Assembly (NCBI GenBank): GCA_014729775.1
Contig: WJJJ01000013.1
Coordinates: 2,947 to 66,946 of the forward strand
Direction: 5' to 3'
Source: Candidatus Omnitrophota bacterium
GTDB taxonomy: Bacteria; Omnitrophota; Gorgyraeia; Duberdicusellales; 4484-171
Length of the DNA: 64,000 nucleotides
The notes beneath the pieces are model-generated. The model was not told where the DNA came from. It saw nothing but the letters and a program-made list of their open reading frames with translations, and did not search any database. Both the position numbers and the translations under genes were made by a program. This document shows, in pieces, positions 8,821-28,422 of this stretch; within the stretch, counting starts at the first letter, position 1; each line of letters starts with the position of its first letter.

Positions 8821-8824
8821 TCAT

Positions 8825-12383: not shown

Positions 12384-12399
12384 TGGCATGACTTTTGCT
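12384..12399 (+). promoter_or_regulatory. sigma-54 (-24/-12) promoter TGGCATG-N4-TTGCT
   Basis: tTGGCATgacttTTGCTa; GG at 12385-86, GC at 12397-98, 10-nt spacing; ~65 nt upstream of PEP-CTERM gene start 12463. Confidence 0.7.
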
Positions 12400-12462
12400 A
12401 TTGCTTAATCGAAGATCCACGAATGAAAAGAACGATGACATATGAAGAGAATGGAGGGATTG

Positions 12463-13248: not shown

Positions 13249-13299
13249 CCGCATTCCTTGTAGTACCTTTCTTTACGGCAGGGTGTATTGAGTGATACA

Positions 13300-13333
13300 A
13301 CGCAGGGGTTCCCCACCCCTGCGTCTTCATTTT
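13300..13333 (+). terminator. rho-independent terminator
   Basis: ACGCAGGGG-ttcccca-CCCCTGCGT stem-loop followed by cttcatttt. Confidence 0.6.
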
Positions 13334-13514
13334 CCCGGCCGGAATCCCTTGTGTGACTGCGTGAGAAAAGGCGGCGCGCGGCTCTTTTCCGGTGTCGGTT
13401 TTTTTTACGATGTCACGCAATTTTACAGTCATTCCGCCAGGGGGAGGATTCCGAGGCAAGAAGATTGAGGGGATTCTCTTTCCTTAGGGGGGGCGGGGGT
13501 AAAAAAGTCAATTT

Positions 13515-13530
13515 TGGCATGGATGTTGCT
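13515..13530 (+). promoter_or_regulatory. sigma-54 (-24/-12) promoter TGGCATG-N4-TTGCT
   Basis: tTGGCATggatgTTGCTa; GG 13516-17, GC 13528-29, 10-nt spacing; ~60 nt upstream of start 13590. Confidence 0.7.
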
Positions 13531-13589
13531 ACAGACTTATAAAGACTAATCATAAGAGAATGGCGGTTGAGGGAAAAGGAGGCATAATT

Positions 13590-14336: not shown

Positions 14337-15010
14337 GAGCGGTGAGGAAGACTGTATTATTTTTGATCGGCGCATTAGTGATATCTTTTCCGGCGTACGC
14401 GATTACCTGGCTGACGCCCAATCTGGTGGTGAATCCGGGCGCGGAGACTGGTGATACCTCCGGCTGGGAAGTGTACGGTCCGGCGTACGCGACGACCAGC
14501 CAGTCCCAGAGTACCGGGACGGTCCTGCCTCATTCCGGCGATTATTTCTTTTCCTATGCGCAGAACGCGGCTTCGGATGCGGTTTTAGTCCAGTACGCGG
14601 ATGTGTCGACTTTTGCCGGTTTGATTGATTCCGGCCAGGCATATGTGCAGGCTGGGTTTTGGTACCAAACTGAAGAATATCAAGGTTCGAGCGATGAGGC
14701 GTTCGGTTCGCTGGGTTTTTTTGAAGGGGACAGCAGCGATATGCCGTTTGACGTGCTCACATCCGATCCGCTGGTGTCATCGAGTTGGGCGTACACGGAG
14801 GTGATGGAGTTGATCCCTGCCGGTACCCGGACTATAGGATTGGCAATGATTGGAGAGCTTGAGTCCGGCTCGTACGTGAACGCGTTCTTTGACGACGCGC
14901 AGCTGCGGGTCGGCACTGAAACCGTTATTCCCGAACCGGCAACCCTGCTGCTGCTTGGTAGCGGCCTGCTGGGGCTGGGCGGGACGCGGCTGCGGCGCAG
15001 AAAAAGATAA
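14333..15010 (+). CDS. PEP-CTERM sorting-domain protein
   Basis: GTG start (14333 or 14342) overlapping upstream stop; signal peptide; C-terminus IPEPATLLLLGSGLLGLGGTRLRRRKR. Confidence 0.8.
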   Translation: MRAVRKTVLFLIGALVISFPAYAITWLTPNLVVNPGAETGDTSGWEVYGPAYATTSQSQSTGTVLPHSGDYFFSYAQNAASDAVLVQYADVSTFAGLIDSGQAYVQAGFWYQTEEYQGSSDEAFGSLGFFEGDSSDMPFDVLTSDPLVSSSWAYTEVMELIPAGTRTIGLAMIGELESGSYVNAFFDDAQLRVGTETVIPEPATLLLLGSGLLGLGGTRLRRRKR

Positions 15011-15066
15011 ACTGTCTGTAGTGCGTTCAGTGAGGAGTGACATTTTTTGAGGAGAGAGGAGTTGGC

Positions 15067-15780
15067 ATGAAGAAGTATGTGTGTCTTGTTTCGTTGTTAA
15101 TGCTGATGATGTACACCCCGGGTGCGTACGCGCTCGTGACCAATATTTCGCTTGATCCGGTTGATTGGGAAGTGGTGCCCGGATCTCAGACGATTAATTC
15201 CTCTCTAAGTAATCCGTCGCCGGATATGCTGCGGATCCAGAAAAGTTCCGCAAATCCAGGCAGCGGGCTGGGCGCATTCTATCAGACGACAGATAGGTAC
15301 GATTTCACTGACGCGATACTCCAGTACCAATGGCGATTCAACGGCCAGGGATCTTATGGGAACGTGTCGATCGGGCCTCGCCCATGGCCGGAAGGTTCAG
15401 GGGTCGGCGGCCGCTTTACCAGCGGCTGGTCTTTTGCGGGGAGTACGCTCATCACTTCCAATCAGTGGTATTATACTCAGTTGATTATTCATGACGATTT
15501 ATCCTATAGTTACGATATCAGCGCGTTGGGATACGGAGAAGGCGGTTTTGTGTCATCGACCGGGTCGCTTTCTTCTGCCCAGTACGATTCTCTTCAGGAC
15601 GGGATCTTTCGCGTGAACATATTTGACAACTGGGCGGCGAATCAATACGTGGATATCACCGATGCGACAATCGAAAGCGAGGGCGGTCCGCAGGGCCCGA
15701 TTCCCGAACCGGCAACCCTGCTGCTGCTTGGTAGCGGCCTGCTGGGGCTGGGCGGGAAGCGGCTGCGGCGCAGAAAATGA
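15067..15780 (+). CDS. PEP-CTERM sorting-domain protein
   Basis: RBS GGAG + ATG 15067; signal peptide MKKYVCLVSLLMLMMYTPGAYA; C-terminus IPEPATLLLLGSGLLGLGGKRLRRRK. Confidence 0.85.
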   Translation: MKKYVCLVSLLMLMMYTPGAYALVTNISLDPVDWEVVPGSQTINSSLSNPSPDMLRIQKSSANPGSGLGAFYQTTDRYDFTDAILQYQWRFNGQGSYGNVSIGPRPWPEGSGVGGRFTSGWSFAGSTLITSNQWYYTQLIIHDDLSYSYDISALGYGEGGFVSSTGSLSSAQYDSLQDGIFRVNIFDNWAANQYVDITDATIESEGGPQGPIPEPATLLLLGSGLLGLGGKRLRRRK

Positions 15781-15808
15781 CATTTGAGGCAAAAGGAAAG
15801 GATTTCGC

Positions 15809-16447
15809 ATGAAAGTTCTTATTTTAATCGCACTCACCGTGGGGATTATGTGTACTTCCGGTCAGGCGGCCGAAGCATTGATGATCCCTGAAGTTGAACC
15901 GAACGATTCATTCGCGGATGCAATGAATCTGGATCCCTATTTTTCCGTCGGGGCCAATTCCGATATCGTTGATTCGGCAACCGTGCCCTGGGTTTCAGTG
16001 AGCGGGACCGGGAACGATACTTACGATTACTATTCGTTCACCGTTCCCTTCGCCGGGTCGCAGGGGATTTTTGAAATTGACTATGGGTATGGGGTCGGCG
16101 GAAGTATTGATCCGATACTCCTGCTCTACGCGTCGCCGTACAACCAGCTTGACGGTGACGACGATTCCAATCCGGCATGGGGTGCCGGCGGCAGTACCTC
16201 CTGGTTGGATTCGTATTTACCGCATGGCGGCGGGTGGTATACCTTTCATTCTCCCGGGCTGTATTATCTGCGGGTGAGTGAATGGTCGAGAGGACCGGTG
16301 CGTCCCGGCGGAACGTATACCCTGCAGGCATCAGTGAGCGGGCATAGCACGGATACGGTGATCCCCGAGCCGGCGACCCTGCTGCTGTTGGGCAGCGGCT
16401 TGCTCGGCGTGGGCGGATTCAAGCTTCGCCGCAGGAAAACAGCGTAA
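15809..16447 (+). CDS. PEP-CTERM sorting-domain protein
   Basis: Signal peptide MKVLILIALTVGIMCTSGQAAEA; C-terminus VIPEPATLLLLGSGLLGVGGFKLRRRKTA. Confidence 0.85.
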   Translation: MKVLILIALTVGIMCTSGQAAEALMIPEVEPNDSFADAMNLDPYFSVGANSDIVDSATVPWVSVSGTGNDTYDYYSFTVPFAGSQGIFEIDYGYGVGGSIDPILLLYASPYNQLDGDDDSNPAWGAGGSTSWLDSYLPHGGGWYTFHSPGLYYLRVSEWSRGPVRPGGTYTLQASVSGHSTDTVIPEPATLLLLGSGLLGVGGFKLRRRKTA

Positions 16448-16591
16448 GTGTCGGTATCTTTGACAAAGTCGGATATGTTAACAACGCTTTCGGCGAAAGA
16501 GAGAGGCGAGAGCCTTACAGAGGGAGTTATGACCAGAAATAAGGCAAAATCAGGCCGAAAGAGAAGTTTTTTTGCATTGACGGCTACTTTT

Positions 16592-16607
16592 TGGCACAGG
16601 AATTGCT
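16592..16607 (+). promoter_or_regulatory. sigma-54 (-24/-12) promoter TGGCACA-N4-TTGCT
   Basis: tTGGCACaggaaTTGCTt; GG 16593-94, GC 16605-06, 10-nt spacing; ~75 nt upstream of ATG 16682. Confidence 0.75.
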
Positions 16608-16681
16608 TTAATATCAGGTGGAACGTGGGAACACAAATGAATAGCTTGAAACGGAAGAGAGCAGAACAAGGAGGAATAGCG

Positions 16682-17575
16682 ATGAAAAGAGTTTTAGGAG
16701 TAGCAGCATTGGGGATTTTACTTACGGTGTGCGGCAACGCGTTTGCGTTTCACGCCAGTAACATTCAGTTTGATCTGACGCCGGCCGGTATTACCGGGAC
16801 CACTCCTGACGGTGATAATGTAACCGGTTTTTTCAATCAGTTGCAGACATATATGCAGACGTCATCTTACGTGACGGATAACGGAGACGGGTTGCCGTCT
16901 GTAGGAGATACGTTTGTGGATGTGGGTGATTTGAATGTGACCGCGTTGCTTGGTGGCGGGTCACTGTTGGATACCGAAGGGTTGAACACGCCGACGCTCG
17001 GGTATGAAATTACCGGTCGCTGGGATGATTTGACCGGCGGAATCGTGGATGCGTCGGTATCCGGTGGGGGAACAACGACCCTTTTGTATGATTACACCGG
17101 CGGAACGCTGAATATGTACGCGGACCAGCCGCCCAACCAGACTTACAACAGCGGTATTGGCTCCAACGATGACAATCCGGCAACGTTCACCGACGGGTCG
17201 TTGATCGGTACCCTTCAGCTTGTGAGCGGAAGCGGTTCGTTGATTGTTGACGCGGCCGGCAATCCTATTCAGGGCGCGACTACCCTTTCCTGGAGATTTA
17301 CCAATATGCTTCCCGGGTTTTGGCTGGATGCGGCCGGTAATGATCTGAGCACTTACGTGTTTACTGTAGGTTGGGAAGTACAGGCGCTGTCCGGCTCGGA
17401 TACTCATGGGGAGACGTTGATTCTTACCGATAACGGTGACGGTACCTATCGTGTTGACTCAGATCATGACGGTTCCGTAAGTGTGGGCGTGATTCCGGAA
17501 CCGGCGTCTCTGCTTCTTTTGGGCGGCGGATTGTTTGGGTTAGCCGGCATTGGTATTCGCAAGAAAAAGAAATAA
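16682..17575 (+). CDS. PEP-CTERM sorting-domain protein (G/T/D-rich)
   Basis: RBS GGAGG 16670-74 + ATG 16682; signal peptide MKRVLGVAALGILLTVCGNAFA; C-terminus VIPEPASLLLLGGGLFGLAGIGIRKKKK; the listed ORF 16448.. is an in-frame upstream extension without RBS. Confidence 0.85.
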   Translation: MKRVLGVAALGILLTVCGNAFAFHASNIQFDLTPAGITGTTPDGDNVTGFFNQLQTYMQTSSYVTDNGDGLPSVGDTFVDVGDLNVTALLGGGSLLDTEGLNTPTLGYEITGRWDDLTGGIVDASVSGGGTTTLLYDYTGGTLNMYADQPPNQTYNSGIGSNDDNPATFTDGSLIGTLQLVSGSGSLIVDAAGNPIQGATTLSWRFTNMLPGFWLDAAGNDLSTYVFTVGWEVQALSGSDTHGETLILTDNGDGTYRVDSDHDGSVSVGVIPEPASLLLLGGGLFGLAGIGIRKKKK

Positions 17576-17603
17576 ACCTTTTGGCGGATTGTACAAGGTT
17601 CAA

Positions 17604-17640
17604 AAGAGGCAGGGATAATTCCCTGCCTCTTTCTTTTTTT
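17604..17640 (+). terminator. rho-independent terminator
   Basis: AAGAGGCAGGG-ataatt-CCCTGCCTCTT followed by T9 run. Confidence 0.8.
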
Positions 17641-17651
17641 AGACCGTAATC

Positions 17652-18512
17652 ATGAAAAAAGCCGTATCTATCCTACTTGCCGGGATTTTGACCGCCTCCG
17701 GTATCTCTTCTGCTTCGGCGGCGGTGGTGTATCTGTCCTCAACACGTCAGATTGATCTCGGCGGGGTGACTTCGGAAATGTATCAGGTGCTGAAGTATGA
17801 TACTTTCAGCGGCGAAGCCTCGCTGTTTTTCGATGAATTCGATCCGCTCAATGTCCTGACCGGAAGAGATAAGCAGATCGACGCTCTGCACGTACTCGAT
17901 GAGGATAATATTATCCTTTCTACCACCCGTGATGTGCGCTTCAGCGAAGAGGAGGACGAGCCGTGGTTTAAGGACGGCGATGTGTTTAGATACACCTTTT
18001 CTACCGGGACGGCGGTCCTGCTGTTCAGCCAGGAGCATTTCACCGATGCCCGGGAAGATATCAATGCGTTGCAGTATATTGACGAGGACACGCTGTTACT
18101 GTCCGTGCGGGGCAATGCTGAGCTCGGCGGCTTATCTTTTCGCGACGGTGACGTGGTGCGCTATACTCTTTCCACCGATACTGCCGAATTGTTTTTCAAC
18201 GAAGACAGTTTTTTGGGCAACGAGGACATTGACGCGTTCTCTATGATAGACGAACAGAACATCCTGTTATCCACGCAGGCAAGCGCGACGCTCGGTGATC
18301 TTGTGTTCCGGGACGGAGACATTATCCAGTATAACTTGATCACGGGACAGGCGAGTCTGTTCTTAAGCGAAGATTTGATATCTTCGCCGGTGGATGTCGA
18401 CATTGACGCCTTTCACTTCGTGGCCGGTACCCCGGTGATCCCCGAACCGGCGACATTTCTGTTGTTCCTTTTCGGTCTTTTTCCCCTTTTCCGCTGCCGT
18501 TGCCGCGGGTAA
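17652..18512 (+). CDS. PEP-CTERM-like sorting-domain protein with divergent C-terminal tail and internal triple repeat
   Basis: Signal peptide; three ~45-aa repeats (DGDVFRYTFSTGTAVLLFSQEHF / DGDVVRYTLSTDTAELFFNEDSF / DGDIIQYNLITGQASLFLSEDL); C-terminus VIPEPATFLLFLFGLFPLFRCRCRG. Confidence 0.75.
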   Translation: MKKAVSILLAGILTASGISSASAAVVYLSSTRQIDLGGVTSEMYQVLKYDTFSGEASLFFDEFDPLNVLTGRDKQIDALHVLDEDNIILSTTRDVRFSEEEDEPWFKDGDVFRYTFSTGTAVLLFSQEHFTDAREDINALQYIDEDTLLLSVRGNAELGGLSFRDGDVVRYTLSTDTAELFFNEDSFLGNEDIDAFSMIDEQNILLSTQASATLGDLVFRDGDIIQYNLITGQASLFLSEDLISSPVDVDIDAFHFVAGTPVIPEPATFLLFLFGLFPLFRCRCRG

Positions 18513-18583
18513 CCATCCCGTTCTACTTATTTCCCAATCTCGACTTCCCCCGTACCCTTTCTCCTGCCCGCTTCTTACCCACT

Positions 18584-18682
18584 GTTAACTTCGTAGGTTA
18601 ACCGCATAGCCAAAAAAGCATTGATTCTGTTGACTTTGGTTAACTTCGTAGGTTAACACGGGGGGAGGTTAACACGGGGGGG
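18584..18682. repeat. REP-like GTAG-containing palindromic repeats (GTTAAC-ttcGTAG-GTTAAC x2 plus GGTTAACACGGGGG x2)
   Basis: Exact 19-bp copies at 18584-18602 and 18639-18657; half-copies at 18651-18664 and 18667-18682; immediately upstream of an IS200/RAYT-type transposase gene. Confidence 0.55.
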
Positions 18683-18763
18683 CGGATGTGGGTGAGCGGA
18701 GGAGGGGTGACGAAGAGTTGACAGAGGGCGAAAAAAGAGAGATTATAACGAGAGGAGGTGAGG

Positions 18764-19468
18764 ATGAAGCTGAGAATTGAGGACGGCGGCGTGTATCATA
18801 TATTTAATCGGAGCATCGCCAATTTTGTTATTTTTCATACGGAGAGCGATTATAGAAGGATTATCTGCGCTTTTTCTTTTTTTCAATGGAGAGATCTTCC
18901 CTGTAGTTTCAACCGGCTTCTGAAACGGATTGAAACGGGTCAGCTCACAGAAAAGGACATTTTAAAAAAACAGATTCGATTACCGCGCACTCAAATCATC
19001 GCCTATTGCCTCATGCCGACTCATTTGCATATGATTTTAACACAGATAACTGCTGACGGAATAGCTCAGTATATGAAAAACGTACAGAACAGCTATACAC
19101 GCTATTTCAATACCAAGTACCACAGAAAAGGGCCCTTATGGGAAAGTCGGTATAAAAAAGTTCGGGTTACTACTGACAACCAGTTGCTGCATTTGACCCG
19201 TTACCTGCATTTAAATCCGGTCACGGCTCATCTGGTTGACGATCCGGAGCAATGGCCGTATTCTTCGTATCATGAGTACCTCAACCGTATTCCTGCAGAC
19301 GAGAGGATCTGCGGGTACGAAGATGTATTGGAAGTCAAACCTCGATCTTACCAGAAATTCGTAAGAGAACGCATTCATGATCAACGGGATATTGCCGCGC
19401 TCAAGAAATTTCATTTGGAAGATTGCGGCGATCATTTGTATGCAAAAATACCTTCTGTTCAATCTTGA
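18764..19468 (+). CDS. IS200/IS605-family Y1 (HUH) transposase, REP-associated tyrosine transposase (RAYT)-like
   Basis: YHIFNRSIANFVIF N-terminus, HUH motif LMPTHLHMIL, catalytic-Tyr region YTRYFN...RYLHLNPV; gene is conspicuously AT-rich relative to flanks. Confidence 0.75.
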   Translation: MKLRIEDGGVYHIFNRSIANFVIFHTESDYRRIICAFSFFQWRDLPCSFNRLLKRIETGQLTEKDILKKQIRLPRTQIIAYCLMPTHLHMILTQITADGIAQYMKNVQNSYTRYFNTKYHRKGPLWESRYKKVRVTTDNQLLHLTRYLHLNPVTAHLVDDPEQWPYSSYHEYLNRIPADERICGYEDVLEVKPRSYQKFVRERIHDQRDIAALKKFHLEDCGDHLYAKIPSVQS

Positions 19469-19542: not shown

Positions 19543-21924
19543 GTGCTTGCAAATCCGGCGCGTTTCGATTATGATAAGGACGTGGCTGCCTTCATTCGCC
19601 GATTCATTTTAGTCCTTTTGCGCCGGCCGCTGATATCGATCAGCGTGACCGGAGCAATTACGCTTCTGGCCCTCTCAGTCCTGCCGAAAATTCAAATCGA
19701 TCACAGCGTTGACGTATTCTTTGATCGTGACAGCCCCAGCTACGTGCAGTTTCAGGAATGGAAAAAAGAATTCGGAAGCAACCAGCTGATCGTGGTTGCG
19801 CTCGATTCCGGAGAGGTGTTTACCGAGAAATCTCTTCGGGTGATCCGTACGCTTACTCTCGCGTTTGAACGCCTGCCTCACGTGGACGAGGTGACCAGTA
19901 TTACCAATGTCAATGATATCCGGGGTTCCGATCAGGATTTTATCGTCGAGAAGTTTATTAAAGAGATCCCTTCTGATCCGGACGCGCTGTCCCGTCTCGA
20001 AACCGCCGCGCTTCAGAATCCGCTTTACGTGAAAAATCTAATTTCTCCGGACGGAATGGTTGCCGGTATCTCCATCGAGCTCGTCCGTCATGAAGGAGAA
20101 GATGATACCTATAAGAAGGAAGTCATCGAGGATGTATTCGAAATCCTTCAGAAGGAAGTCCCCTCTTCCCATGAGTATTACGTAAGCGGACTGACCACTA
20201 TCGAACATTTCTATGCCCGGTATATGCAGGAGGATCTCAAACGGTTCCTGCCGTTGATCTTCGTTTTTCTAATCGCAGTGTTGGTGATAAGTTTTCGGCG
20301 TCTGGGCGGCGTCCTTATTCCGCTGGTGACGATCACGGTGAGTCTGGTCTGGACAATGGCCTTCCTCTACTTCTGCGGGTTTTCCATCAATAACGTGACG
20401 ACGATTATTCCTCCGATCATCTTGGCGATCGCGGTTGCCGACAGCGTGCATTTAGTGGGGGAAACCCTGCAGAGGGCGCGAAGGGGGGATTTTTGCGGCG
20501 GGAAGGAAGAAAGTTCCGCCGTGGCGGAGACCGCGATGCATTTGCTTAAGCCCTGCGCGCTGACGACGCTCACTACGATGATCGGTTTTTATTCTCTCAC
20601 GGTGAGCCGGATCCCGCCGGTGCGGGAGCTGGGGATCGTCGCGGGAACCGGGGTCTTCTTTGCTTTTGTGCTGACCTTTACCTTTTTGCCCGCGCTGATC
20701 AAACAGTTTCATTTGTGTGCGATGAAGCCCGGCGGCGGGCGCGGGGCGCTGGACAGCGGGTTCGACGCGTTTTTAAAGAAGATGGCCGGATTCAGCGAAC
20801 GTTTTCATCGGGCGATTCTCTGGGGCGCGGTGCTTCTGGTCGCGGGCTGTGTGTGGGGTACGACGTTCATTCAGTCGGAAACAAGCGTGCTTGAATATTT
20901 CAAACCGCAGACACAAGTGTATCAAGCCACTACGTTTATGGAGGAGAACCTGAGCGGAGTGCATTTCCTTCAGATTTCCCTGCGTGCTCAGGAACGGGAT
21001 TATTTCAAGGATCCGGCGCGGCTCCGCGAGATCGAGAATCTGGAGCGTTTTTTGGAAAAGGTTCCTGAAGTCGATAAAGTCGAATCGGTCGTTGATTACG
21101 TCAAGGAGATCAATAAGTCGTTCCATAACGAGAATCCCGGCTATTACGCCATCCCGGAGTCACGGCCGCTTCTGGCGCAGTATCTCCTGTTGTACGGCGC
21201 CCGGGATTTACGTGAGTTTGTTGATTCCCAGTGGGAATGGACGACTGTGCAGGTCCGTCTCACCGAACATAGCACGGCGCGGCTGAGTGAAGTGATCGAA
21301 AATGTAGAGGGATATCTGCACCGTCATTTCAGCGGGATTGAAGCAAGGGTCCTGGGGCAAACCGTGCTTGAGGTGGAGACGAACAACGCCGTTACTGAGG
21401 GGCAGGTCAAAAGTCTGGCGATGGCAATGGCGGTGATCTTTGTCATGATGTTTTTCGTGTTCCGTACTTTCGGGGCCGGCATGGTGAGCATGGGGGCGAA
21501 TCTCTTGCCTCTTCTGATAAATTTTGGGATAATGGGGTTTGCCGGGATTCGGCTTGACAGCGCGACGTCGATGATTTCCGCGATCGCCATCGGCATTATC
21601 GTTGATGACACCATTCATTACATGCACTCGTTTCAGCATTCTCTGCAGTCGCGGGGAAAGTACCGGGAGGCGATGTATGATGCGTTCCATCAAAAGGGCC
21701 GGCCGATTATTCTTACGTCCCTAATTTTGTTCTGCGGTTTCGGAGTGATGATATTTTCTCATTTTGTCCCCACGTATTATTTCGGAATGCTGAGCGCGCT
21801 GTTGATGATTCATGCCTTGGTGGTCGATCTGATCATTCTGCCCAGCGCGCTGATAGCGCTGAAGCCCCGGTTTCGGTCGGGGCGGAAAGGAAAGGAGAAC
21901 CGCGAAAATGAACTCGTCCGCTGA
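19543..21924 (+). CDS. RND-superfamily exporter, MMPL/COG1033 type (12 TM, two large periplasmic loops)
   Basis: Two 6-TM bundles with sterol-sensing-like segments (ILAIAVADSVHL / AIAIGIIVDDTIHY); GTG start, true start may be GTG 19582. Confidence 0.8.
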   Translation: MLANPARFDYDKDVAAFIRRFILVLLRRPLISISVTGAITLLALSVLPKIQIDHSVDVFFDRDSPSYVQFQEWKKEFGSNQLIVVALDSGEVFTEKSLRVIRTLTLAFERLPHVDEVTSITNVNDIRGSDQDFIVEKFIKEIPSDPDALSRLETAALQNPLYVKNLISPDGMVAGISIELVRHEGEDDTYKKEVIEDVFEILQKEVPSSHEYYVSGLTTIEHFYARYMQEDLKRFLPLIFVFLIAVLVISFRRLGGVLIPLVTITVSLVWTMAFLYFCGFSINNVTTIIPPIILAIAVADSVHLVGETLQRARRGDFCGGKEESSAVAETAMHLLKPCALTTLTTMIGFYSLTVSRIPPVRELGIVAGTGVFFAFVLTFTFLPALIKQFHLCAMKPGGGRGALDSGFDAFLKKMAGFSERFHRAILWGAVLLVAGCVWGTTFIQSETSVLEYFKPQTQVYQATTFMEENLSGVHFLQISLRAQERDYFKDPARLREIENLERFLEKVPEVDKVESVVDYVKEINKSFHNENPGYYAIPESRPLLAQYLLLYGARDLREFVDSQWEWTTVQVRLTEHSTARLSEVIENVEGYLHRHFSGIEARVLGQTVLEVETNNAVTEGQVKSLAMAMAVIFVMMFFVFRTFGAGMVSMGANLLPLLINFGIMGFAGIRLDSATSMISAIAIGIIVDDTIHYMHSFQHSLQSRGKYREAMYDAFHQKGRPIILTSLILFCGFGVMIFSHFVPTYYFGMLSALLMIHALVVDLIILPSALIALKPRFRSGRKGKENRENELVR

Positions 21925-22801
21925 AACTGCGGGAGAGGCCGATCAATTTTTCAGAGAAGCTTTCTGCCGGAATATCGGACTGCTGACCGAAGAGGAGCAG
22001 GAAAAGCTGCGGCGTACGACCGTCGGGGTTATCGGAGCCGGCGGCGTCGGCGGGCTGCACCTGACGACTTTGGCCCGTTTAGGCGTAGGAGGTTTCCATA
22101 TTGCCGACATGGACAGGTACGAATTAGCCAATGTCCAGAGACAGTGCGGCGCGTTCGTGCATACCCTCGGAAAAAATAAGGCGGAGGCAATGCGGGAGAT
22201 CGCGCTGGGGATCAATCCTCATCTGCGGCTTAAAGTATTTTCCGAGCAGATCGGCCGTGAAAATATTCATCAGTTCCTGGAAGGGGTGGATGTGCTCATT
22301 GACGGCATCGATTTTTTTTCGCTGGAAGCGCGGCGCTGCGCTTTCGATGCCGCCCGGGAACGGGGAGTATATACCGTCACCGCGGGGCCTCTGGGGTTCG
22401 GCAGTGCGATGCTGGTGTTCGCTCCCCAAGACGGGATGACGTTTGACGAATATTTTGATATTCATCCTGACATGAACGAGACGGAGAAGATTATCGCGTT
22501 CGCGGTAGGGCTTGCGCCGGCGGCTCTGCATATGCGTTATTTAAATCTTGGTTCGGTGAATCTGAAGAAAAAATCGGGACCGTCTCTGGTAACCGCGTGC
22601 ACGCTGTGCGGGGTGCTTGCCGCCACTGAGGTGATTCGCATTGTATTGAGAAAAGACAGACCGGCCGCGGTGCCGCATTATTTTCAATACGATCCGTATC
22701 TGCAGAAACTGAAGAAAGGATACGTGCGGTGGGGGAATCGTCATCCTCTTCAACGGGTCAAACGCTGGTATCTCGCCAGAAAACTCGGCGCTCGCGCCTG
22801 A
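21908..22801 (+). CDS. ThiF/MoeB/TcdA-family E1-like adenylyltransferase
   Basis: Rossmann nucleotide loop VGVIGAGGVGGLHLTTLARLGVGGFHIADMDRYELANVQRQ; 17-bp overlap with RND gene. Confidence 0.75.
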   Translation: MNSSAETAGEADQFFREAFCRNIGLLTEEEQEKLRRTTVGVIGAGGVGGLHLTTLARLGVGGFHIADMDRYELANVQRQCGAFVHTLGKNKAEAMREIALGINPHLRLKVFSEQIGRENIHQFLEGVDVLIDGIDFFSLEARRCAFDAARERGVYTVTAGPLGFGSAMLVFAPQDGMTFDEYFDIHPDMNETEKIIAFAVGLAPAALHMRYLNLGSVNLKKKSGPSLVTACTLCGVLAATEVIRIVLRKDRPAAVPHYFQYDPYLQKLKKGYVRWGNRHPLQRVKRWYLARKLGARA

Positions 22802-22837
22802 AGGCTTCTAATAACCGATCAAAAGAGGAGTAGCCTG

Positions 22838-23623
22838 ATGACTTACGGGAAGAGAATATTATGGATGTCCGCTTTATTTACCTGTATATGGCTCTCCTTC
22901 CCTCCCGGCGCAGCCGCCCAGGAGCTGAGCGGAGGGCAGATCATGGAAAAATCCTATTTTCGCGAGGACGGGAATGACGCTGAATTCAAGGTTGAGATGA
23001 TCTTAATCGACCGCCGCGGCCGCGCCAGGGACCGTACGCTGATGATGTATTTTAAAGATTACGGGAATTTGCGGAAAACATTTCTCAAGTTCACGGAACC
23101 GGCTGATATCGAGGGTACGAAGTTCTTATCCTGGGAAACCGAAAACGGCGAGGAGACGCAATACTTGTACCTTCCCGCGCTGGGCAGATCCAAGCGGATC
23201 GTGAGTAGCCAAAGGGACCTGCGGTTTGTGAATACTGATTTTACCTACGAGGATATGGAACGGCGCGAGCCCGGTCAGGATACCCATCGGTTTCTGCGGG
23301 ACGGTGAATCCCTGAACCGGCCGTGCTTTGTGGTGGAGAGCGTGCCCAAACCGGACACTTCCCAATACGGAAAACGCGTCAGCTGGGTAACGAAAGATTC
23401 TTTTGTGGTCGTCGCGGTTGATTTTTACGATACCCGGGAGAAGAAAATTAAGGAATTACGGGTGAAGGAGTTGGAGGAGGTCGAAGGGATCCCGACGGCG
23501 ATGAAAACGATAATGAAGGACCTTAAAGAGGATCACCGGACGGTGATGAAGGTTGAGTATGTGGAATATAATCAGGGGCTTGCGGATACGCTGTTTACGC
23601 TTTCCGCTCTCGAACGTAATTAG
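22838..23623 (+). CDS. LolA-like outer-membrane lipoprotein-sorting protein (type commonly paired with MMPL/RND exporters)
   Basis: Signal peptide; ~260 aa; KFLSWE...YLYLPALGRSKRIVSSQRDLRFVNTDFTYEDM resembles the LolA-like family; call from memory of the family. Confidence 0.5.
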   Translation: MTYGKRILWMSALFTCIWLSFPPGAAAQELSGGQIMEKSYFREDGNDAEFKVEMILIDRRGRARDRTLMMYFKDYGNLRKTFLKFTEPADIEGTKFLSWETENGEETQYLYLPALGRSKRIVSSQRDLRFVNTDFTYEDMERREPGQDTHRFLRDGESLNRPCFVVESVPKPDTSQYGKRVSWVTKDSFVVVAVDFYDTREKKIKELRVKELEEVEGIPTAMKTIMKDLKEDHRTVMKVEYVEYNQGLADTLFTLSALERN

Positions 23624-25001
23624 AAGTATTGGATTGGCGTTCGCGCTGAGTGCGGCGGCTTCGCATCCGATCACTGCGCAGGATGCGCTGGAAGGAGCAG
23701 TTTCCTGGTCTTCTTCAGGGGAGCTCGAATTCCGGGTGTTTCAGGACACGGTTGAAGATACCGAATACGAAGATCACCGGCAGTATTTCAGCCGGGCATT
23801 ATGGGAGAATGAGGTCCGGCTCGAAGGAAGTCCTTTGCGCGTTCAGATAAACGCTGAAGCGGTCGGAGAAGCCTGGTCGGGGGACGAGAGCAGAGAGGAC
23901 GCGGATGTATTCCTGCACGAAGCGTACGCGAGTTATGTCAAGGGAGCGCATGCGTTCACCGTCGGGCGTCAAGTGGTGACCTGGGGCCGGATTGAACGGT
24001 CCAGGCTGGACGTGTGGAATCCGCAGAGTTACCGGTGGTTTGTATTGTTTGATAAACAGCGTCGGAAAAGGGCGGTTCTGATGAGCCGCTATGAATATAT
24101 TGCTCCCCGCTTTGATCTCGAATTTGTCTGGATGCCCTGGTTTGAACCTTCTCAGTTGCTGTACTTCGGATCGGACTGGGCGCTGTTTGATCACACGAAA
24201 AAAATCATACGAGAGGAAGGTTATCCGCCGGCGGTGAAATCTCTGGTGAATGCGATCGAAATCCGGGCCGATCCTGAGCGGGAGAAGCACGCGCTCACCA
24301 ATTCTCAAGGCGGAGCGCGACTGCGCTCCCGGGCCGGGGATATCGATTACGCGCTCTATTATCTGAACGTGGCGCAGAATCTTGGAGTCCTGCAGGAATC
24401 GACGCCAAAGGGGAACCTGGTGAAACAGTTTTTGTATCTTCCCTCCGCCGGGAACCTGAACCGGCTGCTCGCGGCTGCCCCGGCCGGAGATGATCTTATT
24501 CTGCGCAAAGAACATCCAAGAATGCACCTGATCGGTGCCGACGCAGAAACCGTGTGGGGAGTAAGTTCGGTGCGAGCGGAGCTGGCCTACGCGACCAAAA
24601 TGGCGTATTTGCGGGAGGATTTTTCGTATGCGATCCACGATACCCTTTTTGGGGCGTGCGGGGCCGATTACACCGGTTCCGGCGGTCTGTATCTGAATAT
24701 CGATTTTCTTTACAGGCAAATTCTCGGTTATAGAGAGTTGTTTGCCGACGAAGAATATACCTTCCAAGTCGACGGCACGCTGCGGAAGGATCTCTGGAGA
24801 GGCAGCGCCGAATTCGTTCTGGACGGTTCGTTTAATTTCTCGCGGCATGACTGGATGATCAATCCGGTGGTCACCTGGAAAGCGAATCCCTCGTTTCACG
24901 TTTCCGCGGGAATGGTTTTTTTCGGCGGGGACTTAACGACTCTTTTTGGACGGTTTGATCAGAAAGATCTGGTATACGTCCGTACTCAATACTTCTTTTA
25001 A
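23553..25001 (+). CDS. putative outer-membrane beta-barrel protein (RND-cassette associated)
   Basis: Signal-peptide-like N-terminus (LAFALSAAASHPITAQD), alternating amphipathic strands, C-terminal ...YVRTQYFF terminal Phe; start uncertain (overlaps previous gene). Confidence 0.45.
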   Translation: MSMWNIIRGLRIRCLRFPLSNVIRSIGLAFALSAAASHPITAQDALEGAVSWSSSGELEFRVFQDTVEDTEYEDHRQYFSRALWENEVRLEGSPLRVQINAEAVGEAWSGDESREDADVFLHEAYASYVKGAHAFTVGRQVVTWGRIERSRLDVWNPQSYRWFVLFDKQRRKRAVLMSRYEYIAPRFDLEFVWMPWFEPSQLLYFGSDWALFDHTKKIIREEGYPPAVKSLVNAIEIRADPEREKHALTNSQGGARLRSRAGDIDYALYYLNVAQNLGVLQESTPKGNLVKQFLYLPSAGNLNRLLAAAPAGDDLILRKEHPRMHLIGADAETVWGVSSVRAELAYATKMAYLREDFSYAIHDTLFGACGADYTGSGGLYLNIDFLYRQILGYRELFADEEYTFQVDGTLRKDLWRGSAEFVLDGSFNFSRHDWMINPVVTWKANPSFHVSAGMVFFGGDLTTLFGRFDQKDLVYVRTQYFF

Positions 25002-25026: not shown

Positions 25027-25848
25027 TTACCGCATGATTTTTTCGAAATCGTACGTGGGGTAACATTTCTTGAGGTAGGCGAGGTGTTCCGGAGAGCAGT
25101 TTCGGAGGATTGGATGGCGTTCCACGAAAAACGAGCGCAGGTCGTCTTCCGAAAAACGGAATTTTCCGCTGAATTTTTCGGGTTCGTTCTTTACCCGCAG
25201 GAACATTTTCTGTAAATCTTCACGCTGCATCGTTTTGCATCGTTCTTCAAACCCGTGAAGGTTGATGTATTTGCCTATTGCCGGTGCTCCGTTGGCGTGA
25301 TTGTACGTCTTGAGCTCTCCCAGATCCTCAAACAGGAGAAAATCATAAATAAGCTTATGTTTTGGATGGAACGTGATGCAGGCAAAATCATAATCGTGAT
25401 ATATCGAAAGATAATCAAAGACAAGCTTGAACAGTGAAAAGATGAAGAACATTTTTTTTGCGTTCAACATGACCGATACGCCGCGAAAGAGGTCGGTATT
25501 GCTGGCGAGCATGGTCACTTCGCATACTTTTTTCCCCTGATCGCGTAACGCATCGATTTCATTGCGGTAAATTGCGTCCATGGGCAGGCCCAGAGGGGAA
25601 TCGGGGATCACCGAAACGGTGGAGAGGACAATGTCGTCTGCGACCGTGACAAACGTGCTGCTTTGCGGCAGTGCGTTGTAGACCGTGTAGCGCATCTGCG
25701 ACGGACATTCCTCGGTGTATCCGCGTTTCAGATATTCCCGATAGACGAGAGAGTACGCCTGAGTGATTTCCTCGCGTATGCGTGCGATACGGTAATCCAC
25801 CGAACGTAAGAGAGTTTTTACGTCTATGCAGTCTTGTGACATATTCAT
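25027..25848 (-). CDS. putative N-acyl amino acid synthase (LuxI/FeeM-like; exosortase-system-associated type)
   Basis: ~270 aa, N-terminal RIREEITQAYSLVYREYLKRGY; AT-rich gene; assignment from size, context and weak recollection of the family, not a firm match. Confidence 0.4.
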   Translation of the reverse strand: MNMSQDCIDVKTLLRSVDYRIARIREEITQAYSLVYREYLKRGYTEECPSQMRYTVYNALPQSSTFVTVADDIVLSTVSVIPDSPLGLPMDAIYRNEIDALRDQGKKVCEVTMLASNTDLFRGVSVMLNAKKMFFIFSLFKLVFDYLSIYHDYDFACITFHPKHKLIYDFLLFEDLGELKTYNHANGAPAIGKYINLHGFEERCKTMQREDLQKMFLRVKNEPEKFSGKFRFSEDDLRSFFVERHPILRNCSPEHLAYLKKCYPTYDFEKIMR

Positions 25849-26327
25849 GACTTTACGTGAATGTCCCCGTGCTGATCGAGATATTCGCTGAGAATCGTCC
25901 GGCTGACGTAGAAAACGAATTTCTGCCGGTCTTGAGGGGACATTTTGTGAAACCGGATTCCGGTAAGATACGCGGGATACGAAGAGGAGCCTGAATGCGT
26001 GTTCTCCGGCTGGGAATTCCAGATGACGTCGGCATCAACCGAGAAAGGTTTCTGTTCGTCCGGAAGCTTCAGTTTAAGCGAGATCACCTGTCCCCGGGTG
26101 AGCGGGACAGGGGAAAGAAAGCGCATCCCTCCGCCGCTGATATCTTCAATCGCGAGAGGGCGATGCCAACGATTCCGGCCGCTCATTGCAAATTCCATCT
26201 CCAGCGGGAGAGTGACCCGGTCGGTCTTTCGCTTCTCTTTGGCCAGCAAAGTCTGCAGTTTTTTCAACTCTTCCCGCATGAATGCTCCTCGCTGTTCCAT
26301 TATCGGCATATTTGGGCGTACTGTCAA
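25845..26327 (-). CDS. PilZ domain protein (c-di-GMP binding)
   Basis: KEKRKTDRVTLPL (RxxxR) and EDISGGGMRF (DxSxGG) PilZ motifs; ATGA-type overlap with downstream gene on minus strand. Confidence 0.75.
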   Translation of the reverse strand: MTVRPNMPIMEQRGAFMREELKKLQTLLAKEKRKTDRVTLPLEMEFAMSGRNRWHRPLAIEDISGGGMRFLSPVPLTRGQVISLKLKLPDEQKPFSVDADVIWNSQPENTHSGSSSYPAYLTGIRFHKMSPQDRQKFVFYVSRTILSEYLDQHGDIHVKS

Positions 26328-26671: not shown

Positions 26672-26687
26672 TGGCATGGAATCTGCT
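26672..26687 (+). promoter_or_regulatory. sigma-54 (-24/-12) promoter TGGCATG-N4-CTGCT
   Basis: tTGGCATggaatCTGCTt; GG 26673-74, GC 26685-86, 10-nt spacing; 30 nt upstream of start 26717. Confidence 0.65.
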
Positions 26688-26716: not shown

Positions 26717-27598
26717 ATGGAGCGAATAGTCGGATATCCCAGTAGAGATGTGGATAAAAAGTTCCGCCGGGCGGTGCGAACCGTACGGAAGACCCTGCGG
26801 GAAATTACAAGACCTGACGTAAGAAGGGTCTGTGCTTCTTTTTTCCTGGGGGTGTTCCTGACCGGTACTGTTGCCGCGGTGGTGTGGTTAGTGCGCAGTT
26901 CTGTGTATGCTCAGTCGACTATGGTACGGTCGGCGGCTGTGCCGCTGGAATCGGTTCGTTGGGTGATGAGCGGGAGCTTGGCGAGCGCATTGATCAGTTT
27001 CGCCCGCGTAAAGTATCGCCTGGGAAAACGGTGTTTTGATGTGGCGGCGTCTGCGATCGGACTTATTTTGTCGGCGCCGTTGCTGATCATTATCGCGATA
27101 CTGGTGAAGCTTGAATCGGAAGGTCCGGTGTTCTTTACCCAGAAGCGGCTGGGGAAGAACGGCAAAATTTTCAATATTTGGAAATTTCGCACGATGCGCA
27201 ATAACGCCGAGATGGAAACCGGTCCGGTATGGGCGCAGGATGACGATCCCCGGGTCACCCGCTTGGGAAATTTCCTGCGTAAAACGCATATCGATGAACT
27301 GCCGCAATTATGGAATGTGGTGAGAGGGGACATGAGTCTTATCGGTCCGCGTCCGGAACGTCCCGAATTCTCGGAGCAGATTGCCTTTCACGTGCCGCAG
27401 TTTCGTCAGCGGATCGAGGTGAAACCAGGGATTACCGGTTTGGCACAGGTGCGCTATCAATACGGAGCATCAATACGCGATGCGTCGAGAAAATTGCGGT
27501 ACGATCAATTATATCTGCAGCGGATGTGTTGGTTTCTTGATTTCCAGATCCTGCTTTGGACTCTGGGACGGGTGATGACCGGCGAAGGCGCCAGGTAA
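26717..27598 (+). CDS. exopolysaccharide priming polyprenyl-phosphate sugar phosphotransferase (bacterial sugar transferase, EpsB/WbaP C-terminal type)
   Basis: KRCFDV...LLIIIAILVKLESEGPVFFTQKRLGKNGKIFNIWKFRTM...DELPQLWNVVRGDMSLIGPRPERPEF. Confidence 0.85.
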   Translation: MERIVGYPSRDVDKKFRRAVRTVRKTLREITRPDVRRVCASFFLGVFLTGTVAAVVWLVRSSVYAQSTMVRSAAVPLESVRWVMSGSLASALISFARVKYRLGKRCFDVAASAIGLILSAPLLIIIAILVKLESEGPVFFTQKRLGKNGKIFNIWKFRTMRNNAEMETGPVWAQDDDPRVTRLGNFLRKTHIDELPQLWNVVRGDMSLIGPRPERPEFSEQIAFHVPQFRQRIEVKPGITGLAQVRYQYGASIRDASRKLRYDQLYLQRMCWFLDFQILLWTLGRVMTGEGAR

Positions 27599-27615
27599 AC
27601 GAAGTTTCTCTGCTG

Positions 27616-28422
27616 ATGAAAACAGCGATACATATTTGGAAAGATTCCTGGCAGCTGCTCCAACGGCATTTAAAAGTGATCGTGCCGTTCGGGGTGACCG
27701 CGCTGGCGGGAGTGTTGGCCTTGTGGATTTTATATTTGGCGCCGCAGAAACCGGTATCGTATCTGCTGGCACCGCCGATCAGAAAATTCCTGGGGGAAAA
27801 GTTCCTTCATTATCCGTATCATTTATTTATTCTGCCCAAGTTGTTCTATTACGCAGAAAGGGTGATCATCGCCGTAGTCGGCGTGCTGATGACCGGAACC
27901 GCGATCGGGATGATCAAGGAAACGTTTGAAGGGAAAAGACCCCGTATTATGCGTAATTTCACGTACGCGCTTCGGAGATTTTTCGCGTTGTTTGTGATTC
28001 TCGCGGTGATGATGGGCGCGGCGATCCTGACGTCGGAAGCCGTAAAAGCGGTATTTGCGCAGAGGAACTTCGCTACGGCGCTCCTGATGTATCTGGCAGC
28101 GCTGATCCCTCAGGCGTTGTTTATTTACGCGCTGCCCGCGATCATTTTGGGCAGACAAAATGTGATCAGGGCATTCCATGAGGGAATAAAATTATTCGGG
28201 CGCCGGTCTTTGACGACTATTCTTTTTATTGTAGTTCCTGCGCTGGTCTATGTGCCAGTGCTGGCGCTCAACCAGATCGGCAGAAATTTAATCGTGAATA
28301 TCGCTCCGGAAGTGATCCTGGTGATGATCGGCCTGGGAATCATTGCGTCGTTGATCATCGAGATATGGACGATACTCGCGCCGACGGTATTGTATTTGAA
28401 AACAAAGGAGGGAAGTGTATGA
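27616..28422 (+). CDS. polytopic membrane protein, function unknown
   Basis: 6-7 predicted TM helices; ATG 27616 (listed ORF starts 27556); ATGA overlap with next gene. Confidence 0.4.
   Translation: MKTAIHIWKDSWQLLQRHLKVIVPFGVTALAGVLALWILYLAPQKPVSYLLAPPIRKFLGEKFLHYPYHLFILPKLFYYAERVIIAVVGVLMTGTAIGMIKETFEGKRPRIMRNFTYALRRFFALFVILAVMMGAAILTSEAVKAVFAQRNFATALLMYLAALIPQALFIYALPAIILGRQNVIRAFHEGIKLFGRRSLTTILFIVVPALVYVPVLALNQIGRNLIVNIAPEVILVMIGLGIIASLIIEIWTILAPTVLYLKTKEGSV

Follow-up and report, generated by a model that had tools for sequence, protein, structure and literature searches.

The stretch of DNA analysed here (hereafter, the window) covers 64,000 nt from a Candidatus Omnitrophota bacterium (assembly GCA_014729775.1, contig WJJJ01000013.1, positions 2,947-66,946 of the forward strand). 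It carries a cassette in which the gene for a ThiF/E1-like adenylyltransferase lies among genes for an envelope exporter and near a gene, on the opposite strand, for a FeeM-fold N-acyl amino acid synthase (NAS). Our results suggest, with a probability of roughly 0.6, that the cassette is a self-contained lipid-making and exporting module derived from the acyl-oxazolone pathway, in which an N-acyl amino acid would be made, activated with ATP and exported. Judged from its genes, the cassette appears to be an oxidase-less derivative of that known pathway, with a PilZ-domain protein in the set and an exporter trio that resembles the AmeABCD-type HAE3 system; these three points go beyond the initial annotation of the locus.

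The four + strand genes described in the initial annotation are real, and Pfam confirmed their families as MMPL, ThiF, LolA_like and DUF1302. The first (19543..21924) encodes a 793-residue HAE3/MMPL-type inner-membrane transporter of the resistance-nodulation-division superfamily (MMPL, 1.9e-39). As had been reported, its open reading frame (ORF) runs into the next gene: its last 17 nt overlap the start of the ThiF gene (21908..22801), which encodes a stand-alone adenylyltransferase of 297 residues (Pfam ThiF, 5.6e-49). Next comes a secreted periplasmic LolA-like protein of 261 residues, TP_0789-like and related to DUF1329 (22838..23623; PF17131, 2e-59; DUF1329, 5e-11). The last + strand gene (23634..25001) encodes a DUF1302-family β-barrel (31.8 bits) with the C-terminus ...YVRTQYFF. 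The description of this protein as an outer-membrane barrel ending in Phe stands, but its start is probably TTG 23634, as in the 455-residue NCBI model, or ATG 23559, and not necessarily 23553, where the longest ORF begins. Converging tail to tail on these genes, with a 25-nt gap, is a two-gene operon on the - strand. It consists of the FeeM-fold NAS gene (25027..25848, 273 residues; Pfam FeeM, 3.3e-37; PDB 2G0B FeeM, 8e-21), 2.2 kb from ThiF, and a gene for a PilZ-domain protein of 160 residues (25845..26327; Pfam PilZ, 6e-14). The two are translationally coupled, with a 4-nt overlap.

In the acyl-oxazolone systems OxzA/OxzB of Pseudoalteromonas rubra and TyzA/B/C and TrzA/S of Mycobacterium tuberculosis, the pathway begins with an N-acyl amino acid formed by a FeeM-fold acyltransferase; a ThiF enzyme or domain cyclises this with ATP, and a nitroreductase-type flavin oxidase (NTR) desaturates it (PMC10404671, PMC12856293, bioRxiv 10.1101/2020.06.11.147165). 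ATP-dependent cyclisation is carried out by the ThiF domains of TyzB and TrzS and has been assigned to that of OxzB (PMC10404671, PMC12856293). In TrzS, cyclisation precedes desaturation, and a saturated cyclised intermediate accumulates if the oxidase is disabled or oxygen is limiting (PMC10404671, PMC12856293). According to a 2025 review, no ThiF-like enzyme except OxzB is known to have a small-molecule substrate.

By sequence, the window ThiF belongs to this OxzB/TyzB/TrzS "oxazolone cyclase" branch. The protein is 100% identical to NCBI protein P0001, with the same start, from a Candidatus Omnitrophica metagenome-assembled genome (MAG; 80.6-kb contig), and it has no nitroreductase domain. 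NCBIfam model PRK08223 matched it with 378 bits (cut-off 266); it also recognises, at 419 bits, the ThiF of L022, a Pirellulales locus in which an NTR gene is adjacent. The window protein also aligned over its full length with the ThiF part of PRK14851 (364 bits) and PRK14852 (251 bits), and modestly with the model of the TrzS family, Rv1355c (72 bits). PRK14851 (679 positions) and PRK14852 (989 positions) are both titled "hypothetical protein". A 671-residue Desulfospira protein spans PRK14851 from end to end, and its C-terminal half, a domain of the nitroreductase superfamily, also matches the Rv1355c and Acg FMN-oxidoreductase models. A separate Pirellulales nitroreductase of 371 residues covers positions 619-986 of PRK14852, and the window FeeM protein, for which PRK14852 is the only NCBIfam match, aligns with positions 31-202. 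Thus, PRK14851 corresponds to ThiF plus NTR and PRK14852 to FeeM plus ThiF plus NTR. One protein of 982 residues (P0219) carries FeeM, ThiF and NTR in a single chain, all three confirmed by Pfam. The initial annotation had connected the E1-like enzyme to the neighbouring NAS gene, and these FeeM-ThiF fusions (PRK14852, P0219) argue for that link.

Residues expected for ATP and Mg binding are retained. G43xGGxG48, D67, R78, K91 and D132/D135 align with those of ThiF and TcdA and are invariant in 46 homologues, and the branch-specific motif GM(S/T)FD(E/A)YFD is present. In an alignment of NTR-linked ThiF domains with the NTR-less clade that contains the window protein, every column invariant in the former was also invariant in the latter; a single column was class-specific (Q77 versus N). 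An AlphaFold2 (AF2) model of the window ThiF (predicted local distance difference test score, pLDDT, 93) has the E1 fold, with target TM-scores of 0.82-0.84 to its top structural neighbours AclA, ThiF and MoeB. The best of these is AclA of Tenacibaculum discolor (PDB 9EGB, "in complex with substrate", released 2025), which may be another ThiF with a small-molecule or peptide substrate.

We considered whether the enzyme could instead be a classical E1 acting on the C-terminus of a protein or peptide, such as a ThiS/MoaD/ubiquitin-like protein, a precursor of a ribosomally synthesised and post-translationally modified peptide (RiPP) or a processed PEP-CTERM protein, with its position beside FeeM and the pump being regulatory or coincidental. 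Most characterised ThiF-family enzymes do act on polypeptides or tRNA (PMC12596934), and many PEP-CTERM proteins are encoded nearby. However, the segment that aligns with the CxxC/Cys crossover of E. coli ThiF (the CYRC region) contains no cysteine in the window protein, so that both the zinc-binding CxxC and the catalytic-Cys crossover segment are absent. No small GG-terminated ORF that could encode a ubiquitin- or ThiS-like partner was found within 10 kb of the cassette, and none of the loci described below contained a ThiS, MoaD, rhodanese or RiPP-recognition domain. Since the closest relatives are of the small-molecule OxzB type, and fusion to FeeM argues for a shared small-molecule substrate, we regard a polypeptide substrate as very improbable.

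The profile comparison of TcdA, MoeB and MccB proposed in the initial annotation found that none of the three fits, with PRK08223 the model above its cut-off. The annotation had feared a TcdA orthologue; the TcdA model NF011696 gave 62 bits against a cut-off of 304, over residues 15-161 only. Comparison with PDB sequences likewise confined the TcdA likeness to the Rossmann half (residues 16-162, 52 bits), and TcdA ranked 33rd among structural neighbours. Models of MoeB and ThiF sulfur-carrier E1 enzymes scored 55-90 bits against cut-offs of 159-449; for this class, too, the crossover cysteine and a nearby small GG-terminated ORF are missing. NCBIfam and PDB scores ruled out MoeZ and SAMP-E1. 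Matches to MccB/PaaA-type RiPP ThiF enzymes in the PDB covered residues 30-114 only (E 1e-6 to 1e-8); the window protein lacks their N-terminal extension, and no ORF resembling a RiPP precursor lies beside the cassette. The pump scored 79 and 112 bits against the models for the hopanoid transporter HpnN (cut-offs 1100 and 752), and no hopanoid biosynthesis family was matched among the 49 window ORFs scanned with Pfam. ThiF-fold proteins are ubiquitous, and LolA-like proteins accompany HAE3 pumps in many settings (PMC6394551), which is what an account by chance would need: a housekeeping TcdA, MoeB or ThiF orthologue beside an unrelated solvent- or hopanoid-type transporter. These family scores, together with synteny and overlapping genes across ten contigs, refute that account, to which we give almost no credence.

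Which relatives carry the oxidase was determined from homologues. A HMMER search of 1.84 billion representative proteins recovered 380 ThiF homologues at E<=1e-30. Among the best 150 of the 380 (50%-identity representatives), NTR was fused to ThiF in 83, on either side, and FeeM in three; 47 were stand-alone, and several had a fused methyltransferase. The latter include P0137, P0145 and P0168, methyltransferase-ThiF and methyltransferase-ThiF-NTR fusions within the same ThiF branch, which recall the set of methyltransferase, ThiF and nitroreductase in stieleriacine clusters. Most of the nearest relatives of the window ThiF (40-55% identity) are fused or adjacent to NTR and some are fused to FeeM. 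Named genomes with ThiF-NTR fusions (671-706 residues, 47-53% identity) belong to Desulfospira, Desulfobacterales, Acidobacteriota and Halodesulfovibrio, and three have FeeM alongside. In Burkholderiales and in two of five Bdellovibrionales loci, where ThiF stands alone, the examined stretch contains a separate NTR gene. The Pirellulales locus L022 combines two FeeM genes, a MacB/HlyD/TolC-type exporter, NTR and a ThiF that is 54% identical to that of the window.

Scanning genome and metagenome contigs for exact peptide words yielded 16 plus 17 loci. In a neighbour-joining tree, the window ThiF nests among ThiF-NTR relatives within a monophyletic NTR-less clade (93/100 bootstrap replicates; 50-66% ThiF identity), which we call class A and for which all counts rest on ten independent loci. 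The named sources of these loci are Omnitrophota MAGs, and of the 120 nearest clusters at 90% identity, about 69 score as class A. No nitroreductase was found in the 64-kb window or in L001-L004 with an NTR-domain hidden Markov model (--max, six-frame ORFs of at least 50 residues). Searches by tblastn, one of them with eight NTR domains, found none within 10 kb of ThiF in any of the ten class A loci, and the Pfam Nitroreductase family was absent from the 49 scanned window ORFs. In contrast, 22 of the 32 loci outside class A have NTR fused to ThiF or present in the examined stretch; among the 26 of these 32 that exceed 4 kb, the figure is 20. Except in L019, an NTR in the examined stretch lies next to ThiF. 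Since the oxidase accompanies ThiF in 22/32 loci outside class A versus 0/10 inside it, and class A forms a single clade, we favor one ancestral loss of the oxidase over repeated relocation.

Alternatively, the window could encode a complete acyl-oxazolone pathway whose flavin oxidase acts from elsewhere in the genome, the product then being a desaturated oxazolone or N-acyl dehydroamino acid like those of Tyz, Oxz or stieleriacine systems. ThiF and NTR are indeed separate genes in L014, L015, L018, L019, L022, L034 and L043, and our searches reached 64 kb in the window and 10 kb on either side of ThiF in the relatives. Yet the distribution of NTR and the single, well-supported class A clade (93/100) speak against an oxidase in trans, and we consider it improbable.

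The ThiF gene is also tied to the exporter. MMPL lies directly next to ThiF in eight of the ten class A loci, and in six MMPL comes first. Their overlap is 17 nt in the window, and likewise in L023; L042 has one of 4 nt, as does L003, where the order is reversed (ThiF, then MMPL). In L001, a small inserted gene separates the two. Gene order is permuted, with adjacency and overlapping stop/start codons preserved. Six of the seven class A loci with downstream sequence continue into LolA-like and DUF1302 genes, and all eight with sufficient flank have both FeeM and PilZ (the FeeM, PilZ and FAAL-ACP-PlsC counts refer to these eight). Recurring in ten independent contigs, the arrangement is not due to chance. 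The E1-like enzyme, which the initial annotation had singled out as unusual in such a set, is by this synteny and these overlaps a genuine, if unusual, member of the exporter cassette, and the overlaps suggest co-production and perhaps direct hand-over between enzyme and pump. L043 is an intermediate locus (LolA-like, DUF1302, MMPL, ThiF, NTR), and Desulfospira L005 has FeeM...MMPL-ThiF-NTR. As both keep pump and NTR, the link between ThiF and the exporter is older than the loss of the oxidase.

Small genes resembling the 23S_rRNA_IVP/bAvd four-helix bundle occur in three class A loci: L001 (9549-9929, between pump and ThiF), L003 (9547-9900) and L023 (3146-3316). These look like mobile passengers.

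Within the exporter, the pump has two MMPL stretches and matches to the Patched/sterol-sensing (SSD) and ACR_tran families in Pfam. Its best NCBIfam match is the HAE3 model TIGR00921 (217 bits, residues 28-770). Because this is below the subfamily cut-off of 352, we describe the pump as HAE3-like by sequence rather than as a curated HAE3 member. Orthologues (46-54% identity) adjoin ThiF in L001, L003, L023, L025, L026, L041 and L042, and further ones occur in the NTR-containing loci L043 (42%) and L005 (37%). The LolA-like protein, a proposed lipid carrier or adaptor, has an N-terminal signal peptide (...PPGAAA/QE); its orthologues (46-54%) follow ThiF or MMPL in L003, L023, L025, L026, L041, L042 and L043. 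The DUF1302 match of the barrel exceeds the gathering score (23.2) and covers part of the model only, and its orthologues P0271-P0274 all contain PF06980. An AF2 model of the barrel, built from a shallow alignment (the homologue search gave four proteins), consists mainly of long antiparallel strands at moderate confidence (pLDDT 67.5). The best Foldseek matches to this model were OmpF/OmpC/OprD-type porins of 16-18 strands (E 2e-11, probability 1.0). Two antisense ORFs (21208-21693 and 23799-24899) were unsupported and treated as spurious.

FeeM orthologues (42-56% identity) are present in all eight class A loci with sufficient flank; NCBIfam models of exosortase-associated acyltransferases did not match the window FeeM. 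PilZ adjoins FeeM in L003, L021, L023, L025, L027, L041 and L042. The window PilZ protein contains R33KTDR37 (RxxxR) and D62ISGGG67 (DxSxxG), making it a candidate cyclic di-GMP (c-di-GMP) switch. In six orthologues compared, RxxxR and two glycines were invariant, and the motif serine varied (S, G or C).

Six of the eight loci also contain, beside FeeM/PilZ, a gene for a protein of 890-1000 residues that combines AMP-binding and PlsC-type acyltransferase domains, with PP-binding in three. We refer to it as FAAL-ACP-PlsC-type (L003, 17378-20059; L021, 13843-16542; L023, 14603-17596; L025, 15848-17800; L027, 5617-8274; L042, 14217-17201). Such a protein could supply FeeM with acyl groups or O-acylate its product. 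The pairing of an N-acyltransferase with an O-acyltransferase is the logic of ornithine and glycine lipid synthesis, which the FeeM plus PlsC-type combination resembles.

This gene bears on a different outcome of the ThiF reaction, in which FeeM would act first and ThiF would then serve as a ligase-type activator. The adenylate would be captured by a second nucleophile, be it another amino acid, an amine, a lipid or sugar hydroxyl, or the product of the PlsC-like acyltransferase, and the resulting stable dipeptido- or ester-linked aminolipid would be pumped to the outer membrane. ThiF-family enzymes generally nucleotidylate a carboxylate that varied nucleophiles then displace (PMC12596934), the step by which an oxazolone is stabilised has gone with the oxidase, and a dedicated route from inner to outer membrane suits a structural membrane lipid. 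The presence of the FAAL-ACP-PlsC-type gene in six of eight loci fits as well. Nonetheless, the window itself has no PlsC-type gene, the cassette conserves no candidate enzyme for a second substrate and no partner for a condensation, and ThiF keeps all residues invariant in its cyclase relatives, with one class-specific change. We therefore view a ligase-type activator as unlikely.

The module that we favor, one derived from the acyl-oxazolone pathway, would work as follows; what we say of its chemical steps, of the amino acid and acyl chain used, of the transport direction and of a tie to the exosortase is all inferred from homology and context. FeeM, perhaps under the control of the PilZ protein (itself probably c-di-GMP-responsive), would N-acylate an amino acid with acyl-ACP or acyl-CoA as donor. 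Cytoplasmic ThiF would use ATP to adenylate that product's free α-carboxylate. This agrees with the suggestion in the initial annotation that an acyl-type carboxylate is activated, a role supported by membership of the OxzB/TyzB/TrzS branch and by the published cyclisation biochemistry. By analogy with TrzS and other characterised relatives, the amide oxygen would then attack the adenylate and close a 5(4H)-oxazolone ring. Because the clade has lost the flavin oxidase that desaturates the ring, the predicted product is a saturated oxazolone (azlactone) or the adenylate itself, in either case a reactive, hydrolysable acyl donor and not a stable conjugate; alternatively, another nucleophile may capture the adenylate made by ThiF. 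At the inner membrane, the HAE3/MMPL pump would take up the lipid, the LolA-like protein would carry or bridge it in the periplasm, and the DUF1302 barrel would pass it into or through the outer membrane. There, it may act in the matrix of PEP-CTERM proteins and exopolysaccharide (EPS) built by the surrounding exosortase locus.

Several points weigh against this scheme. The chemistry of the class A clade is deduced from homology and context. All characterised oxazolone systems have an oxidase, and a saturated oxazolone is hydrolytically labile, so that the true product could be a different one, for example an amide or ester with a second nucleophile. An oxidase could also be encoded elsewhere in class A genomes. 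L021 and L027/28 have no nearby pump or LolA-like gene, and L027/28 also lacks the barrel; thus, the exporter is not obligatory. No FAAL-ACP-PlsC homologue was found by tblastn in the 64-kb window, and L041 also lacks one, so that the window pathway may be incomplete or use general acyl-ACP pools. The canonical serine of D/NxSxxG occurs in only two of the six PilZ orthologues, including that of the window, making c-di-GMP binding less certain in those where it is altered. Finally, the experimental footing for the direction of HAE3/DUF1302/LolA-like transport consists of the Ame efflux phenotypes.

The cassette is embedded in an exosortase locus, as the initial annotation had recognised from this stretch: we found PEP-CTERM genes, an exosortase, EpsI and a priming sugar transferase. 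Seven PEP-CTERM genes occupy 12442-18512. The priming sugar transferase lies at 26717 (EPS_sugtrans, 294.5 bits; cut-off 295.6), the exosortase at 31613 and EpsI/DUF3485 at 32463 (1e-33). Genes for TPR proteins belong to the locus as well, and after EpsI come a histidine kinase with a GAF domain, a sigma-54 response regulator and RpoN (35762-37153). The exosortase exceeds the cut-off of the generic model TIGR02602 (166 bits; cut-off 106) and falls below that of the XrtA model (174 bits; cut-off 208), and the response regulator falls below that of PEP_resp_reg (423 bits; cut-off 503). By these scores, we class the locus among exosortase systems as XrtA-like rather than as a curated XrtA system. 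Glycosyltransferases and polysaccharide deacetylases are encoded at 0.2-6.3 kb of the window.

Class A loci share this setting. PEP-CTERM genes occur in eight of the ten and exosortase or EpsI in five, and the worry that the cassette might be absent from other exosortase loci is answered by its recurrence in L023, L025, L027/28 and L042. L023 and L042 reproduce nearly the whole window: exosortase, EpsI, sugar transferase, PEP-CTERM, MMPL, ThiF, LolA-like, barrel, PilZ and FeeM are followed by (FAAL-ACP-PlsC), a conserved unknown, a TPR protein, GAF kinase and sigma-54 regulator.

One of the seven PEP-CTERM genes encodes a PepA-like protein of 375 residues (16448..17575, + strand) with a PEP-CTERM domain (floc_PepA, 75.8 bits; cut-off 80). 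In L023, L041 and L042, an orthologue (34-40% identity over about 280 residues) is encoded immediately upstream of MMPL, and L001 and L003 have one nearby, making this protein a possible functional partner of the cassette. The orthologous genes lie at 3436-4311 in L001, 1397-2224 in L003, 6327-7109 in L023, 6530-7387 in L041 and 6366-7145 in L042. The family shares the tail ...S/TDHDGS..V(V/I)PEPAS... and accompanies the cassette even in L041, where no exosortase gene lies within 10 kb.

A more specific version of the proposed module can be built on these neighbours. The azlactone made by the NTR-less ThiF would be passed directly to the pump, whose gene overlaps that of ThiF, and would then N-acyl-aminoacylate an amine of the envelope: that of the PepA-like PEP-CTERM protein, of partly deacetylated exopolysaccharide or of the exosortase acceptor. 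We offer this as a speculation that is more probably wrong than right by a wide measure. If true, it would amount to a previously unknown form of ATP-primed lipidation outside the cytoplasm and would explain the association of NAS enzymes with exosortases.

PEP-CTERM genes are also found near NTR-containing NAS-ThiF clusters, at up to about 2 kb in Acidobacteriota (L009, 11835-12932; L030, 7447-8091 and 16625-17413), in Pirellulales (L022, 11175-12152) and in the metagenome contigs L036 (6347-7219), L038 (6892-7791) and L043 (4449-5249), and at 4-6 kb in Desulfospira (L005, 16226-17170) and Halodesulfovibrio (L013, 1468-3577). The Desulfospira PEP-CTERM protein is weakly PepA-like over its full length. 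The association with PEP-CTERM proteins may thus be general to oxazolone-type lipids, a comparison that is uncalibrated against genome-wide PEP-CTERM density.

Between the last PEP-CTERM gene and the pump is a gene resembling a REP-associated tyrosine transposase (RAYT; 18758..19468, + strand; Y1_Tnp, 1e-7; REP_Tyr_transpos, 68 bits, cut-off 80). No gene of this kind was called or annotated at the same position in related loci, and it is probably an insertion outside the system. Upstream of it are two copies of GTTAACTTCGTAGGTTAAC. Just upstream of the gene, at 18583-18681, a GTTAAC-flanked repeat, GGTTAACTTCGTAGGTTAAC, occurs twice together with two tandem copies of AGGTTAACACGGGGGG; one GGTTAACTTCGTAGGTTAAC copy is an exact 20-mer and the other has a single mismatch, leaving 19 shared nucleotides identical.

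At 27556-28422, after the priming sugar transferase, is an ORF for 288 residues without a Pfam or NCBIfam match. Matches by tblastn (21-36% identity) lie in or near L003, L021, L025, L027/28 and L042, usually just before the TPR protein, and in L023 a 285-residue ORF without Pfam match takes its place. By this distribution, the 288-residue protein is a conserved unknown of such exosortase loci.

Upstream of the PEP-CTERM array, 6280-12278 encodes an 846-residue protein with two ATP-grasp modules, then a histidine kinase and a sigma-54 response regulator, each the second of its kind; with this pair, the locus has two sigma-54 two-component systems. Two PEP-CTERM genes and the sugar transferase gene are preceded, at 30-45 nt, by sigma-54-like -24/-12 elements (TGGCAT-N5-(T/C)TGCT; 12384-12399, 13515-13530 and 26672-26687), which fits the sigma-54 regulators and RpoN of the locus. 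However, the number of matches across the window equals chance (21 versus 20.95 expected) and none precedes the pump or PilZ, so we make no claim of co-regulation. A scan of the window for sigma-70 promoters and terminators was uninformative.

Acyl-oxazolone lipids were discovered between 2020 and 2025, and the cassette appears to represent a coherent branch of these systems that differs in three ways: ThiF has lost its oxidase, its gene overlaps that of a three-part exporter, and a c-di-GMP-type switch is present in PEP-CTERM/exosortase loci. It would be a natural "cyclase-only" system in which to ask what a ThiF cyclase makes without desaturation. It also suggests concretely what the poorly understood HAE3/LolA-like/DUF1302 transporters might carry and gives a testable mechanistic lead on why NAS enzymes travel with exosortase systems. 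If a reactive lipid is indeed exported, this would bear on what the exosortase attaches its substrates to.

The association of NAS with PEP-CTERM/exosortase systems was noted in 2011 (Craig et al., as cited in PMC4897644 and PMC11072679). In keeping with that association, the exosortase/EPS locus of the window, XrtA-like in type, contains a FeeM-type NAS together with a histidine kinase, a sigma-54 regulator and RpoN. In a full-text literature search on PEP-CTERM and ThiF, genes of ThiF type figured in a PEP-CTERM locus solely as two "UBA/THIF-type" entries, uncommented, for a PEP-CTERM EPS cluster in a Rubrivivax gene table. Nothing there paired ThiF, the pump/LolA-like/DUF1302 trio and PilZ with such an NAS, and these additional partners appear new.

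TcdA carries out the same formal chemistry as that proposed here, an ATP-driven cyclodehydration of an N-acylated (carbamoylated) amino acid moiety to an oxazolone (PMC12596934). Unlike the window ThiF, it acts on tRNA and has no synteny with lipid genes.

Further parallels are the clusters for stieleriacines and for thalassotalic and kyonggic acids of Planctomycetota and marine bacteria, which combine NAS, ThiF and nitroreductase (plus methyltransferase); L022 has the same set of NAS, ThiF and nitroreductase (PMC12479983). The role of ThiF in these clusters was called enigmatic by the authors (PMC12479983). As in our cassette, the exporter of L022 is clustered with the biosynthetic genes. In contrast to the cassette, such clusters keep the nitroreductase, use another type of exporter and have methyltransferase-ThiF fusions in their neighbourhood.

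For the exporter, the nearest counterpart is AmeABCD of Castellaniella defragrans, in which an HAE3 pump with DUF1302 and DUF1329/LolA-like proteins exports apolar compounds (PMC6394551). Both systems bring together an HAE3-type pump, a periplasmic protein of LolA-like type and a DUF1302 barrel, and AmeABCD is a proposed trans-envelope route for apolar molecules (PMC6394551). Compared by family rather than against the Ame sequences, three of the four component families are present and AmeC (COG4447) is missing from the cassette. The LolA-like protein is of the short PF17131 type (261 residues) rather than the 451-residue DUF1329 type, and the barrel is also shorter (about 455 versus 605 residues). 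While AmeABCD belongs to a catabolic island, the cassette is tied to a biosynthetic enzyme.

The Oxz, Tyz and Trz systems share with the cassette a FeeM-fold NAS and a ThiF of the same branch (PRK08223/PRK14851/PRK14852), as well as an MMPL gene alongside, in that the tyz genes of M. tuberculosis flank mmpL9 (PMC10404671). They differ in that no NTR or flavin-dependent oxidase (FDO) is fused, adjacent or present in the 64 kb here, so no desaturation is expected. As the flavin oxidase partner is a defining feature of oxazolone synthetases, we have not filed the cassette as a member of that group. The overlap of pump and ThiF genes, the full three-part envelope exporter, the PilZ partner and the PEP-CTERM/exosortase setting also set the cassette apart, as does its host, an uncultured Omnitrophota bacterium, the hosts of the known systems being Actinomycetota or Pseudomonadota. 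By analogy, the cassette would work like an Oxz/Tyz/Trz pathway joined to an Ame-like exporter.

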